Below are positions 24,976-33,038 of a stretch of DNA of 64,000 nucleotides, one piece after another; the first letter of the stretch is position 1; each line of letters begins with the position of its first letter. The notes under the pieces are model-generated. The model saw only the letters and a list, made by a program, of their open reading frames with translations. It was not told where the DNA came from and ran no database searches. A program made the position numbers and the translations under genes. Source of the stretch: Octopus sinensis. Lineage: Eukaryota. The stretch covers positions 66,588,001 to 66,652,000 of the forward strand of contig NC_042998.1 of assembly GCF_006345805.1 (NCBI RefSeq), in the 5' to 3' direction.

Positions 24976-25150
24976 GGAGAAGGCGGCTGGACGTGACGGA
25001 GAAGGCGGCTGGACGTGACGGAGAAGGCGGCTGGACGTGACGGAGAAGGCGGCTGGACGTGACCGAGAAGGCGGCTGGACGTGACGAGAAGGCGGCTGGA
25101 CGTGACGGAGAAGGCGGCTGGACGTGACGGAGAAGGCGGCTGGACGTGAC
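24976..25150 (+). repeat. GC-rich minisatellite, 8 x 22 bp (GGAGAAGGCGGCTGGACGTGAC)
   Basis: Eight near-perfect units (one is 21 bp) starting directly after an (AAT)n tract. Confidence 0.95.
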
Positions 25151-26089
25151 AGAGGATGGACGTATTTTTACGATGCTCTGAACTGGCAACAGCGAACCCA
25201 GCAGGTCAACTGTAGAAAACTGGAAGATCTACTGTTTACTGTAAGTAATTTGAATTACCCTCAAAATAAGTAAAAAAAAAAAACTTACATATCTACAGCT
25301 CATACAAACGTACACCTAACAAGAAAAATTAGAAACATAATATCTCCAATTCTGTGTGAACATTTACATTTAGTCGTCTCTCATGACTATAAGAATGTGT
25401 AAAATTGCCTTTTAAATTACCTTTTATTGTAACAACACAATTAAATGCACGATAAAAAGTTATGGAATTAAGCACCTACTACTATATACATACAACTGAA
25501 TTCAGAAATTTGAAAATATATACATAACATTGAACTCAGAAAGTTATTTAAAAAAAGAAAAAAAAATCTTCGACGAAAACATCAGATATGTGTGAGTGAA
25601 TATACATATATATACATATACATATGCATGTGGTGAAGAAGAAAAGAGAAAGGAAAAAAAATAAATAAATAAATAAATAAACGTAAACAGGTTTGACCTT
25701 TTACTGACCATTAACGTCCTTTGTCTCCACCATCTACCGTAGCTATTTATAGACCCAAAGAACATGAATTCTTTAACCACCCATTCTCCAACACAATGGA
25801 GTGTTGATGGTGGCTGTGGGTACACATAAAACAATGTCATTGAAGATGATGATGGTGATGGTGATGTTGCTGATGATGGTGATGGTGGTGAAGATGATAG
25901 TAATAACAATAATAACTGACAGATCCCGTCTTTTTCCCTTTCTTTTCGTTTCCTCCTCCGTATTTTATTCTCATTATTTCGAACTAATACAGACACAGTA
26001 AGCCTTGAAGAAAGGAAGAGGAGGAAAGGAAAAAAAAAAAAAATGTCCGGAGATAAAACTATCAACAAAAAAAATACAGACGAATATAG

Positions 26090-28993
26090 GGTTAATATAG
26101 GGCGTGACAAATATCGGAAAATCAAAAAAAAAATGTGTGTAATAGGTGTAAAACAACTTCCTATGAACGAATATGAAAAAAAAAATTCGCGCACGCGAAA
26201 GGGGGGTGGGGGAGAGTCCTCGGAAAATTCACATCGGGAAGTTCCGAAAGCGTCTGAGGGGCTGACCCGGGCACCAAAACAAAAAAAAAATTGTGTAATA
26301 TGTGTAAAACAACTTGCTCTAAACGAATATGAAAAAAAAAATTCGCTCTCGAGAAAGAGGGGTGGGGGAGAGGCCTCGGAAAATTTATGTCGGGAATTTC
26401 CGAAAGCGTCTGAACCGGGCACAAAAACAAAAACAAAAACAGCGTAATAGGTGTAAAAAAAATTGCTCTAAACGACTATCATGAAAAAAATGCGCGCTCG
26501 CGAAAGGGGGGTGGGGGAGAGGCTTCGGAAATTCACACATGAATCATAAACTCCGTATGTTTGTACATATTTCGCAAAAAAAAAAAATAATAAAGAGAAG
26601 AAATTCTGGAAAAAGTGAAGAAATGTTGGATCTCTGCCATGTGAATCAAAATACGTGTCAGAAACATCTTGAAATACTACAGAAATTATGTTACGAAAAT
26701 GATAATGTATACATACCTCTTTGAGTGGTCCATCGACAGTGTTGATAAAGAAATGAGATGGGTTGCGTTTGGAGGAAAAAATTATCGCGGGCCAGGATAA
26801 AGACTTGCTGCTGCCAATAAGAATACGTGTATTCTCTGGCAGCAGGTCTGATGCTGTCCAAAAAAAGGAACTTCGCCATGTATTGTTTTAGGTAACAGGC
26901 ACGAATGCCTGGGCGAACAACCGATTTCTTCACTGACCCCCACAATCTCTCTATTGTCTGCGTGTGCACCGACGTGTTTGTCGGATCCACAAAGTTTTCG
27001 CTGTGGTTGACGCGGAAGTGAGTATACCCGATATTTCCAAGAGAGTTATAAGCACCCCAAGAATCACTATATACTACCGACCCTTGGCGTATATATCGGG
27101 TAATTAAGGGGATCAGTGTGGCGGCATCTCGCCTTTCCTCTTCACCACACTCAGATGAAAGAGGTATCAAAAATTTCTTTTTGGCTACCCGCTCGATTCC
27201 ACCGAAGAGCCAGATAGTTTTTGTCAGTCTTCCTCGATTGTATTTCCTCCTTACAATAACAGATTCGTCGATCTCCACTTCAACTCCTGGTCCACCGATT
27301 TGGTCCTGGTAATTCTCTACCCAATGTTGACAAACCTCGGAGCAGAAGGATCGCCAATCGATTGAGGTCGAATACGAAATTTTCAAATTTTCAACGGCTA
27401 ATGAGTGCGACCAACCGTCTATGAGGAAGTAATTTACAAATAACAAGATTTGACCTGGTGATAGCTGGCTCTTCCCCAAAAATGTATTGCTGTATAGGGA
27501 TATTGAATATCGACATTGTGTTGGCCGTTGCCTTCGACGGCGAACAGTCCTTCCACATCGGAAGATGTTTGTATTTCCTTGCAATGTACATGGTAAATTG
27601 CATCTAGGGCAGTCAACTGTGCGGGGAATGATATTATGTTTTCGAAAAAAATCCAATGCCTCAATGTCATTAGTAAATCGGCGAATCCCATCCTGTAATG
27701 TTAATTCACATGAATTGCAAAGGGCCACTCTCTATCATAAACTTAACGCTTGTGTATCTACGACTGAAATGAATATATGAACTTGTTCTGTACCAAGGAG
27801 CGGGAAATCCTCCACACCAGAAGAATGGATGAGTAAACACTGGTCAATGAAAGGTCAGTCTTTTGTCTAAGAACAGTTGTTTACAAGACGATAGTTGGTA
27901 CCAAGTTCTATTCAAGAAAGGTCAGTCTTTTGTCTAAGAACAGTTGTTTACAAGACGATAGTTGGTAACAAGTTCTATTCAAGACAAAAGACTGACCTTT
28001 CATTGACCAGTGTTTACTCATCCATTCTTCTGGTGTGGAGGATTTCCCGCTCCTTGGTACAGAACAAGTTCATATATTCATTTCAGTCGTAGATACACAA
28101 GCGTTAAGTTTTATCCTGGCCCGCGATAATTTTTTCCTCCAAACGCAACCCATCTCATTTCTTTATCAACACTGTCGATGGACCACTCAAAGAGGTATGT
28201 ATACATTATCATTTTCGTAACATAATTTCTGTAGTATTTCAAGATGTTTCTGACACGTATTTTGATTCACATGGCAGAGATCCAACATTTCTTCACTTTT
28301 TCCAGAATTTCTTCTCTTTATTTTTTTTTTTTTTTGCGAAATATGTACAAAAATACGGAGTTTATGATTCATGTATGAATTTCCGAAGCCTCTCCCCCAC
28401 CCCTCTTTCTCGAGAGCGCATTTTTTTTTCATATTCGTTTAGAGCAAGTTGTTTTACACATATTACACTATTTCAGAATTTCTTCTCTTTATTATTTTTT
28501 TTTTTTTTGCGAAATATGTACAAAAATACGGAGTTTATGATTCATGTGTGAATTTCCGAAGCCTCTCCCCCACCCCCCTTTCGCGAGCGCGCATTTTTTT
28601 CATGATAGTCGTTTAGAGCAATTTTTTTACACCTATTACGCTGTTTTTGTTTTTGTTTTTGTGCCCGGTTCAGACGCTTTCGGAAATTCCCGACATAAAT
28701 TTTCCGAGGCCTCTCCCCCACCCCTCTTTCTCGAGAGCGAATTTTTTTTTTCATATTCGTTTAGAGCAAGTTGTTTTACACATATTACACAATTTTTTTT
28801 TTGTTTTGGTGCCCGGGTCAGCCCCTCAGACGCTTTCGGAACTTCCCGATGTGAATTTTCCGAGGCCTCTCCCCCACCCCCCTTTCGCGTGCGCGAATTT
28901 TTTTTTTCATATTCGTTCATAGGAAGTTGTTTTACACCTATTACACACATTTTTTTTTTGATTTTCCGATATTTGTCACGCCCTATATTAACC
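26090..28993 (-). mobile_element. Merlin-superfamily DNA transposon with fold-back (palindromic) structure
   Basis: Ends GGTTAATATAGGGCGTGAC...GTCACGCCCTATATTAACC; 8-bp TSD GAATATAG at 26082-26089 and 28994-29001; inverted repeats over 700 bp with three ~160-bp subterminal units; ISXO2-type transposase inside. Confidence 0.95.
26782..27728 (-). CDS. Merlin/ISXO2-like (IS1595 family) DDE transposase; GTG start and one probable -1 frameshift near the C-terminus
   Basis: N-terminal CPRC..C..C zinc ribbon; IGGPGVEVEIDES, KYNRGR, WLFGGIER, SDSWGAY, VNHSENFVDP, HTQTIERLW motifs. An alternate frame gives the Merlin-like end RIHVFLLAAASLYPGPR* with the stop at 26782-26784. Confidence 0.88.
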
Positions 28994-31900
28994 GAATATA
29001 GTTCTGCTAGTCTTAAGAAGCGGCGCTATGAGCAATGCTTACATGTAGTGAACCCTAAACTGACAGATCCATCTCCTAATATAAGAATGGATGCTCGTCA
29101 TGCTTCAAGGTCAACAAATCAAACAATAAACCGCATTGGTCATTGCGCGGATTACAAAAGACCACGTACCCGAAAATTGAACCAAATCCTGATTGAAAAA
29201 TCAGTTACTGGATCAAATCTTCCCAACACACAGGAGCTGGACGAACCCCACAACCGGAATATTCCAACAGATGGCCATCCATGCTCATCACCAAATAATC
29301 AAAAGAAAAAGAAGGAAAAATGGTCTAGGAAGATAATAAAGAAGTTCTTGAGGCCTTCTACCATGCCATATATTTCCCCACAGATAAGTCTAGCACTGTA
29401 CAAGCATACTTAAACTGGAGACAGAAACACCCTGAAGTAAGACCCTACATAGACAGTAACAAGCTTGCCAATGTTAGAAGAACATTATAAAAAAGAAATT
29501 ACTGACTGAAGTAGAGATTGATCAGGTTAGACAAGCAATATCGGATAAAATGAACGAAGCTGCAGCTAGAGAAGATAATACAGAGGAAATGATTATAGAC
29601 CAGCCCAGGGCGGATAAAAACGAAGAGAGGATTGAAAGAGTTAGTATAAGTGATAGGCAAAGTGAAATACGCCCTGAACCAATCATAAACACTAAGACAG
29701 ATGAGCATCAAATAGATAAGAAAGTCACACAAATATTGACCCAACAGAACTACATGAGCTAAAAAATCAAATCATGATTGAATGGCTGAAAATTAAAGAA
29801 ACCAGCATGGATGAGCGTGATACACTTCCTAAAATCCGCAACTCTAACCAAAACATGAAAATAATTGGTAAAATCCGGCTTGCACTTAAGGATATAATTT
29901 CAGTTAATGATGTTGATATCACAAACCTCAACCACCTATACTATGCATCCGCGAAAATCTCAACGATCCTATGTGGTGTAAAGATTAGAAAACGGCAACA
30001 GTCCCACAAAAAGCCTTCTTGGCAAGAGCGTCTGCAACAACAAATTAAAATATTTAGATCTGACATTGAATATTTGAAAAACCTTAAGGCTCACAAGATT
30101 ACCAAACCTACAAAAACCCAAAAATTACTGAAAAAATACAATATGAAAACTATACTTGATATTGATGCCACCATAGAAACCATCAAACAAAAGGTATCTG
30201 CCAAAGCTGCCCGCATAGCGAGGTATGAAAAGCGTGTTAGATTTTTCAAGGACAACAACATGTTCAAAATAACACCAAGAATTTTTACAGGAAGATAAGA
30301 AAAACAGCGTTTACTGCAGGGTCTGTACCATCAAAAGAAGAAGTGCAGAGATTTTGGAATAAAATCTGGGCAGAAGAAAAAACACACAACGAAAAGGCCC
30401 CCTGGATTGACAGAATATCTACAGAACTGGACCCCTTAGAAGAGCAAAAGTGGGAGGGTGTCAAGGTAGAAGATATAAGATCTGCTCTCAGGAGGTCAAG
30501 CAAATGGAAGTCTCCAGGAAAGGATAAAATTCCTAACTTCTGGCTGAATGCCTTCCCAGAGAGCCATGAACTGCTAACAGAACTGTACAATGATGTTTTG
30601 CAACACCCTAGTAGGATGCCTCCTTGGCTAGTTAATGGGTTAACATTCCTGCTTCCAAAAAGTGAAGAAACAAATGAACCAAAAAACTATAGACCCATAA
30701 CCTGCTTAACAACTATGTACAAAACACTAACATCTGTCCTGACGGAATATACCTATAGTTTTTTAACAGACAGCAGCATATTCCCTACTGAACAGAAAGG
30801 ATGTAAACGTGGATCCTACGGCTGTAAAGACCAACTACTCATCAATAAGATGATCTTAGAAGATTGTCACAAACGACACAAAAACTTATCAATAGCCTGG
30901 ATAGACTATAAAAGGCTTTTGATAGCCTACCACATAGCTGGATTAGGAAATGCCTTGAAATGTATAAGATAGCACCAACTCTGCGAAACTTCTTGACTGT
31001 AAGTATGAGATCATGGAGAACCACACTAACTCTGAACAGTGACAGTGAATCCCTAAATGCTGGTGATGTAAAAATTTCGTGTGGCATTTTCCAGGGTGAC
31101 TCACTGTCACCACTCCTCTTTTGTTTATCCTTAATACCTCTCTCAAAGCTGCTCAATGATGCGCAGTACGGGTATAAAATGTTTGATAAAAATATAAATC
31201 ATCTCGTTTACATGGATGATTTAAAGCTTTTTGCAAAAAATAATCAACAACTCAAGGGCTTACTAGCGATAGTCAAACAATTCAGTGACGACATCAGAAT
31301 GCAATTCGGCCTCGATAAATGTGCAAAGGCTACCTTTATCAAAGGAAAAATGACAGAAACATCTAACGTTAACCTTGACCAACAGAATGTCATAAAAGAA
31401 CTAGACCCAGCGGAGAGCTACAAGTACCTAGGGATAATTGAAGGGAACGGAATAAGGCTTCAGAGATGAAGGAAAGGATCAGGAGAGAATGCTATCGAAG
31501 AGTGAGAGCAATACTCAAGACAGAGCTGAATGCAAGAAACAGGATCGAAGCAATCAATGCATTAGCTATACCAGTCGTGACTTACAGTTTCAATATTGTT
31601 AACTGGTCAATTACTGAAATATGTCAGCTCGACAGAAAAATAAGGAAACTGTTGACAATGCATAGAATGCACCACCCTAAGGCAGATACAGAACGACTCT
31701 ATCTGCCAAGAAAAGAGGGAGGCCGTGGTCTTTTGCAACTGGCAATAACAATGAAGATTGCTACAATTGGCCTAGACACACACCTACCTGAAAAACTCTG
31801 AGGACTGGATGCTAAAACTTATCTCAAAACATGAAAACAAGAAAGCATCATACTCAGTCACAAAACAGGCAAAGGAATATCTAAGTGAATTCCGAATACA

Positions 31901-33038
31901 ACCAATTTCGGAATTAGAGATAGATATACAAGAAACAAGCACAGAAAAAGCTAGGCGCATGAAAACCCGTGCCAAAACTGCGGCCTTAGATATTCTGAAT
32001 AATAAATGGCAAGAAAAACCTCTCTATGGCAAATACCCAAAGAGAGCGAATAATGCGGATATCGACAAAGCCCTGACCCATCAATGGCTAATGGCCTCTG
32101 GCTTAAAATCTGAAACAGAGGGGTTTATCATAGCAGCTCAAGATCAATGCCTACCAACAAGAAACTACCAGGCCAACATATTAAATATCAGAAGCAGTCC
32201 AACGTGTCGTGTATGCAAGCAACAAACCATTGACCATGTGGTCTCCAAGTGCAGTCTTCTAGCGCCTACAGAGTATCTCAACAGGCACGATAGAGCTGCA
32301 CAATATATTCACTGGGTAATCTGTAAAAACCTGGATTTGCCCTATGAAAAAAACTGGTGGGAACACAAACCACCCCCAGTGCTTGAAAATGACCACATCT
32401 CACTCCTCTGGAACTTCACCATTCAAACTGACAGGAAGATAGATGCAAATAGGCCAGACATCATATTGAAAAACTTCAAACAAAGAACATGCCTCCTCAT
32501 TGATATGACTGTCCCAATCGATATAAACGTATCTGTCAAGACCTACCAAAAACTGAGCAAATATAAAGATCTTGAAATAGAAATCAGCAAAATGTGGAAG
32601 CTGAAGACTAAAACAATACCTGTTGTCATAGGTGCCCTGGGAATGATAGCAAAAGGGGCTGATAGCTACCTAACTCAGATACCAGGAAACCCAAAAATGG
32701 CAGAAGTTCAAAAGATAGTGCTCATGGGAACTGCTCATATCCTACGCAAAATACTCTCTATGTAATCTCAAGGTTTAAAACAAACATAATTTTCGGTTTA
32801 AAAAAAAACAAAAAAAACCCCCTTTTTTTTTTAGACATTCATTAGTACAACATCCCCACCCCCCAAATATATGGCACACTAGGCATAACAACAACATGAA
32901 CTTCCAACCCTGTTGTCTCTTGAGGTCTCTGGGTGAGACTTGGAGCCAACTTGTACAAATATAAAGCAAAAGTCAAACATAGAATAATAATAATAATATA
33001 ATAATAATAATAATAATCATAATAATAATAATATTAAT

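Follow-up and report, generated by a model that had tools for sequence, protein, structure and literature searches.

A mobile Merlin transposon of Octopus sinensis with two copies of one end, probably derived from a palindromic two-gene element

Results

Structure of the window element

The window analysed here, a 64,000-nucleotide stretch of Octopus sinensis contig NC_042998.1, contains a fold-back element at 26090–28993 that, judged by its domain and termini, is a Merlin/IS1595 transposon. Its minus-strand reading frame carries DDE_Tnp_IS1595 (Pfam PF12762; E 4.6e-15, above cut-off in a profile search), and the IDES, SDSW and TIERLW blocks (D, D and E motifs) align across four Merlin families. 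The element has GG..CC termini and is flanked by an 8-bp direct repeat, GAATATAG. These ends and the target-site duplication (TSD) had led the first-pass annotation, made from the letters of the window alone, to the same assignment, to which the domain now adds. The features of the locus are as follows:

25131–32763, plus strand: host non-LTR retrotransposon, high-copy; right limit approximate; the element sits near its 5' end
26082–26089, plus strand: left TSD GAATATAG; direct repeat, single copy at the empty site
26090–26801, unstranded: left terminal arm, corresponding to the gene-downstream end; begins GG; holds about 2.8 subterminal units of ~156 bp (26118–26537), the 3' untranslated region and the last codons
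26782–27728, minus strand: Merlin/IS1595 DDE transposase, PF12762
27739–27868, minus strand: leader upstream of the transposase, forming the left inner arm; inverted repeat
27849–27982, unstranded: 2 x 67-bp tandem core; junction-specific duplication replacing the ~55-nt loop of older copies
27982–28111, plus strand: mirror leader, forming the right inner arm; 100% identical to the left inner arm
28110–28114, plus strand: TTTAT microhomology junction at which ~940 bp of mirror coding sequence are gone; same in L031 and L032
28110–28993, unstranded: right terminal arm, mirror of the left plus a 173-bp segment (28375–28547); CC terminus
28994–29001, plus strand: right TSD GAATATAG; direct repeat

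Alignment bears out the outer and inner inverted repeats, the tandem core, the TTTAT join and the short coding remnant described in the first pass. The left arm (26090–26799) and the reverse complement of 28112–28993 differ by three substitutions and one 1-bp gap, and by the additional 173-bp segment found in the right arm only, where a tandem array of period 173 spans 28294–28646. The inner arms are 130 nt long and 100% complementary, and the two units of the core differ by one mismatch. In the right arm, the leader is fused to the terminal arm at a 5-nt microhomology (ATAAA/TTTAT), leaving YPGPR* as the only codons of the coding sequence. The transposase had been placed at 26802–27739; it does lie between the left repeats, but the minus-strand coding sequence runs from 27728 to a stop at 26782, so that its last codons fall within the outer repeat. 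The gene reads outward from the centre, and both ends of the element therefore correspond to the end downstream of the gene.

This structure lies far beyond chance expectation: the centre folds at z = −33 relative to shuffles, and the terminal 16-mer has 605 exact genomic matches compared with 0 for the reversed control. The 130-bp inner stem contains a 113-bp spacer, and the outer stem a 1.3-kb asymmetry.

On the minus strand at 26716–26606, and likewise in the right-arm mirror, a donor-like GTATGT and an acceptor-like TTTTTCCAG delimit a candidate 111-nt intron beginning ~65 nt past the transposase stop; contigs of the public runs contain no corresponding joint. Reverse-transcriptase pieces of the host retrotransposon lie at 30241–31466, and a 22-bp tandem array of eight copies (window 24976–25154) lies at its 5' boundary.

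Mobility and coding state

A search of the genome with the centre of the window element, in which 40 of 327 candidates were scored, yielded three full-length 2,904-bp copies on two chromosome-scale contigs. All three have both junctions and the 173-bp segment in common and differ pairwise by 2–3 substitutions plus single-base indels. Each is flanked by a different 8-bp TSD (GAATATAG, CCAATGTC and GAATTTTC), and a single GAATATAG marks the empty site in 14/14 other copies of the host retrotransposon fetched (of 39 listed). Since three loci carry three different TSDs, the fold-back unit itself has moved as a unit, as the first-pass annotation had suggested, and the palindromic form recurs with the same coding-sequence deletion. 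It had also been considered that all other copies might have two different ends; the DNA searches for the window's family (40 of 74 and 40 of 327 candidates scored) yielded none with a different 5' end. A one-off local rearrangement is ruled out by the three loci, their distinct TSDs and the empty site.

Palindromes are prone to fold-back artefacts in long-read assembly, and the window copy has single-base indels absent from its sister copies. Against a mirror arm of that origin, three loci with unrelated flanks contain the same two junctions, the same 173-bp segment and the same arm-specific differences, each copy has a direct TSD and flanks that are not mirrored, and the empty site is documented in host copies. 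As an assembly fold-back would mirror the flanks and not yield three TSDs, we reject an artefact, the probability of which we consider negligible. Contigs of four public runs over 26600–27915 contain no joints, nor a piece spanning that stretch, and speak neither for nor against the window-specific junctions. The TTAA flanks of the inner hairpin could be taken for a separate TTAA-type insertion; this was ruled out because the inner arm is the transposase leader, which adjoins the gene in most relatives.

In the sister copies, the frame is open over 315 codons and ends in YPGPR*. A single T, at 26836, is missing from the window copy only, a loss that frameshifts its last ~17 codons; this T is present in the two sister copies and in contigs of all four public runs, so its loss is either a private change or a sequencing error. 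Position 27728, the likely start codon, reads GTG in 3/3 copies and ATG in twelve older loci and in L033, a one-armed relative with 98.5–99.6% identity and an intact frame. Contigs of all four public runs likewise read ATG, with GTG unseen in them (contigs drop rare variants). Because the likely start reads GTG in all three, an intact frame with a start codon is found in none of these copies, and they are probably non-autonomous and mobilised in trans, although near-cognate initiation at GTG may be conceivable. The window element is real and mobile, with 8-bp TSDs in 3/3 copies, and adds a new structural variant to Merlin; the copy in the window is a remnant.

In other species, the transposase has 813 homologues, the best at 67% identity. 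Two Merlin-like proteins of Elysia chlorotica, P0006 and P0107, have near-consecutive gene numbers on the same 135-kb contig and may point to a twin-gene element in that species.

Variation within the window's family

Forty loci of the window's family were fetched for coding or centre matches. Two complete arms, and hence a twin-gene palindrome, were found in 0/40, which counts against a palindromic parent. Instead, the mirror arm ends at a range of positions: 26786 (L038, L058, L059), 26807 (L036), 26900 (L052), 27019 (L040), 27044 (L065), 27063 (L035) and 27387 (L048), and inside the subterminal repeats in L037, L041, L062 and L063. Inverted stretches of the leader or of the gene's 5' portion occur at 27636–27591 (L039) and 27874–27795 (L049). 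The three loci with the common breakpoint at 26786 can be read as an ordinary long-TIR (terminal inverted repeat) element, and this too counts against a palindromic parent.

The 21 loci that keep the core contain no conserved non-mirror 5' region: after the core, at most ~60 nt of loop-derived sequence are followed by the mirror arm or by flank. The loop points one way in L037, L041, L052 and L065 and the other way in L043, L062 and L070; the second orientation also appears as a loose end in public run X1. In older copies, a single core is followed by a ~55-nt loop, and the 2 x 67 core is therefore not the ancestral centre. Small inversions and templated duplications crowd the centre, this core being one such duplication, and the central junction differs in nearly every copy. 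Divergence between the arms is mixed and concerns short stretches: in L035, the two arms are mutual nearest neighbours in their coding part (0.7%), whereas those of L048 differ by 3.0% in the coding overlap and each has a different nearest neighbour.

By terminus count, the family has ~300 non-coding members. Twenty paired termini (L086–L105), drawn from the first among the matches listed, delimit non-coding elements of 1.1–2.1 kb, mostly ~1.9 kb, in which arms of mostly ~620 bp surround unrelated, captured AT-rich filler. A perfect 8-bp TSD flanks 14/20. Whole palindromes among them are limited to two (L094 and L099, 1.1–1.2 kb); the commonest members, with ~620-bp TIRs around unrelated filler, are not palindromes, which counts against the palindromic-parent reading. 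Separately, clusters of tandem, same-orientation Merlin transposase fragments extend over 10–20 kb at L121, L122 and L047.

Further Merlin families of the octopus genome

A protein search of the genome, with 126 of 1,405 candidates scored, added 40 further loci. Family B (65% protein identity to the window's family) has arms of 0.9–1.0 kb; in its member L114, which has an 8-bp TSD, the mirror arm extends into the last ~34 codons. Family C (34% identity) includes a 3,307-bp element (L124:2148-5454) with a 9-bp TSD and 1.44-kb arms that differ at 6 positions; one arm contains a 295-codon frame, 220 codons of which are mirrored in the other. The loop of this element is inverted in L134. The arms of L123, L135 and L136, also of family C, hold a ~316-bp unit, with the transposase 3' end in it, in tandem arrays that reach ten or more units, a satellite growing inside TIRs.

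Whole palindromes with divergent transposase genes were found in family D (31% identity). They make up 4/27 loci examined, are 3,336–3,463 bp long and consist of two ~301-codon genes reading away from a spacer of a few bases:

L137:2882-6217 (G000:C18, about 28.004–28.008 Mb), TSD of 8 bp
L146:722-4092, TSD of 8 bp
L147:683-4145, TSD of 9 bp
L148:779-4145, TSD of 8 bp

The four TSDs are distinct. Most remaining family D loci stop at the same centre and join the mirror arm or flank at varied points, and the 311-bp centre is matched in full on both strands in 6 of 40 scored loci. Over the inner 1.1 kb, the arms of the four palindromes differ by 0, 0, 2 and 6 substitutions, and in 3/4 they are nearer each other than any other copy's arm, which, on small numbers, hints at homogenisation of the arms. 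The picture is not simple: only 1/8 arms contains an unbroken 301-codon frame. Older loci (L130, L131, L162 and L163) have a common short, asymmetric 5' end that is 87–88% like their own 3' end, suggesting that the ordinary form may be ancestral in family D. At a further family D locus (L151:880-5333), a single pair of ends flanked by an 8-bp TSD encloses a head-to-tail dimer.

At several other Merlin loci (e.g. L125, L127, L128 and L132), a long inverted repeat was not found, which likewise counts against the palindromic-parent reading. A strict search for GG..CC ends with a TSD recovered elements in 3/22 other Merlin loci. The Merlin-like frame of L125, L127 and L128 lies within a repeat spanning 6.5 kb or more, with 99% identity among the three loci; the termini of this repeat were not located.

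Discussion

Origin of the fold-back form

Together, the structure of the window element, its three insertions with distinct TSDs, the spectrum of breakpoints, the two loop orientations, the twin-gene palindromes of family D and the partial mirrors of families B and C are best read as the history of a cut-and-paste Merlin in which both ends are copies of the gene-downstream end, which moved as a unit and which likely descends from a whole-element palindrome with two outward-reading genes, one arm having then been partly deleted. We consider this account probable. The first-pass annotation had proposed a head-to-head palindromic ancestor; such palindromes are directly present in family D, another Merlin family. 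In this account, a break upstream of the gene would have been followed by fold-back priming at a short inverted repeat and by replication to an inverted dimer, which a transposase accepting two identical ends would then have moved. After insertion, the nearly spacerless centre would break repeatedly, and end joining at microhomologies would remove variable parts of either arm, leaving templated scars such as the 2 x 67 core. PMC7999016 describes fold-back priming at 5–9-bp repeats and how fragile short-spacer palindromes are, and PMC3300023 names centre-break revision. With its longer, asymmetric centre (the 113-bp spacer and the 1.3-kb asymmetry), the window derivative would be more stable, enough so for at least two copyings, its transposase probably being supplied in trans given the GTG at the likely start codon.

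Alternatively, the window's family may never have contained a twin-gene palindrome, and the mirror arm may have arisen by template switching during gap repair of an ordinary long-TIR Merlin. At a gap left by excision, the new strand would switch to the opposite arm, copy inward, slip across the gene at ATAAA, copy the leader and rejoin at the core, with each older mirror-arm copy representing a separate event. A model of this kind has been published for the Goblin MITE (PMC3814204), and extension of TIRs by internal sequence is documented in Galileo (PMC3573991, PMC4168063). The lack of a two-gene copy among the 40 loci fetched and the close pairing of the L035 arms are in its favour, and the junction microhomology is compatible with either model. 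However, it would need some dozen switches to have occurred independently and each to have stopped at one and the same centre, and it is at odds with the absence of a conserved ordinary 5' region. Neither does it predict both loop orientations, whereas from a symmetric parent either arm can be lost, so that the loop would be found both ways and each insertion would have its own junction. The arms of L048, 3.0% apart with different nearest neighbours, are unexpected from a fresh copy of one arm, and family D displays the same breakpoint spectrum beside complete palindromes. We therefore regard template switching as unlikely and favour descent from a palindromic parent.

A wider generalisation is tentative, and we hold it to be possible rather than probable: two-gene palindromes could be a recurrent active form of Merlin that several unrelated lineages have reached in this genome, with fold-back re-synthesis or conversion between arms preserving the similarity of the two arms. 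Scars of central breaks would then account for the long-TIR, Foldback-like and hairpin-MITE forms, and the palindromes themselves would be hidden in short-read assemblies.

Self-silencing

The empty right arm had also been interpreted as a possible built-in self-silencing design, in which read-through would form a long hairpin RNA. In a selected device of this kind, as with Mu killer and Ac killer, the hairpin would be diced into small RNAs directed against the family. The arms are ~99% identical, the centre folds strongly, and in the window a plus-strand retrotransposon, interrupted in its 5' part by the element, could drive read-through. In maize, killer loci act via transcribed inverted duplications and small RNAs, and such duplications silence Ac/Ds (bioRxiv 10.1101/2020.01.07.897926) and MuDR (PMC3440606). 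The arms of the window element, however, read outward: transcripts started at the centre hold one arm only, so that a long hairpin RNA requires read-through from outside, and the resulting stem would contain almost no coding sequence. Junctions that vary in nearly every copy resemble repair scars and not a conserved design, and the derivative went on transposing. We consider a selected silencing device very improbable, while the host retrotransposon could, by chance of insertion, supply read-through at the window locus.

Implications

The whole palindromes of family D are a stronger result than the window copy. Parent-like palindromes occur here alongside intermediates and end products within a single genome and thereby offer a view of how an ordinary DDE transposon may turn into Foldback-type elements and hairpin MITEs. 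The arrangement of the ends indicates that two identical downstream ends are acceptable to a Merlin transposase. Palindromes of 3 kb that are mobile and nearly spacerless would constitute fragile sites changing position in the germ line, and the central junctions, dozens of them different, form a natural record of how palindrome breaks are repaired in an animal. Should such palindromes be common, transposable-element libraries built from short reads would misdescribe these families.

Comparison with known systems

With ~156-bp tandem units in both arms and variable middles, the window element has a Foldback-type architecture. Tc4 and Tc4v of C. elegans are fold-back elements with long inverted arms, including a variant with an ORF in one arm only, and have a transposase of a type other than Merlin's. 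A palindromic Merlin with two transposases was not found by searches of open full-text literature (subscription papers, Repbase entries and supplements lie outside this scope), and the main text of the Merlin account PMC8101967 does not contain "palindrom".

According to that account, Merlin/IS1595-IS1016 elements encode DDE_Tnp_IS1595, have 5'-GG ends, 8–9-bp TSDs, internal tandem repeats and TIRs of 24–462 bp (PMC8101967). The window element agrees with this description in domain, ends, TSD and internal repeats and differs in its terminal arms of 712/885 bp, which lie outside the described range, and in its mirrored leader, the 130-bp inner mirror. The arm length marks the window element as a variant and does not speak against its placement in Merlin. 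In family D, the difference is greater, a single two-gene inverted repeat making up the entire 3.3-kb element.

Galileo, a Foldback-like element of Drosophila, has similarly long, internally repetitive TIRs and many structural variants, and its TIRs grow by internal sequence; one copy has in this way taken in the end of the transposase segment (PMC3573991, PMC4168063). It belongs to another superfamily (P), and its extended copies are described there without two whole divergent genes around a spacerless centre. The Goblin MITE of Aedes aegypti, derived from the Tc1/mariner element Ozma, resembles the window element in that both subterminal regions stem from the 3' end, in its junction microhomology and in being multi-copy (PMC3814204). 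Goblin differs in being 213 bp long and non-coding and in being explained by template switching, a palindromic parent being unreported in the part of PMC3814204 that describes it.

Mu killer and Ac killer of maize are likewise inverted duplications bounded by two copies of one end (PMC3440606; bioRxiv 10.1101/2020.01.07.897926). In Mu killer, the TIRA end and part of the gene are duplicated and read through as a hairpin (PMC3440606). The mirror arm of the window element, in contrast, is not an inverted duplication of transcribed coding sequence but consists of the leader, YPGPR* and the 3' region; the downstream ends lie outside, the genes read outward, silencing is only hypothetical, and the unit is present in multiple copies.
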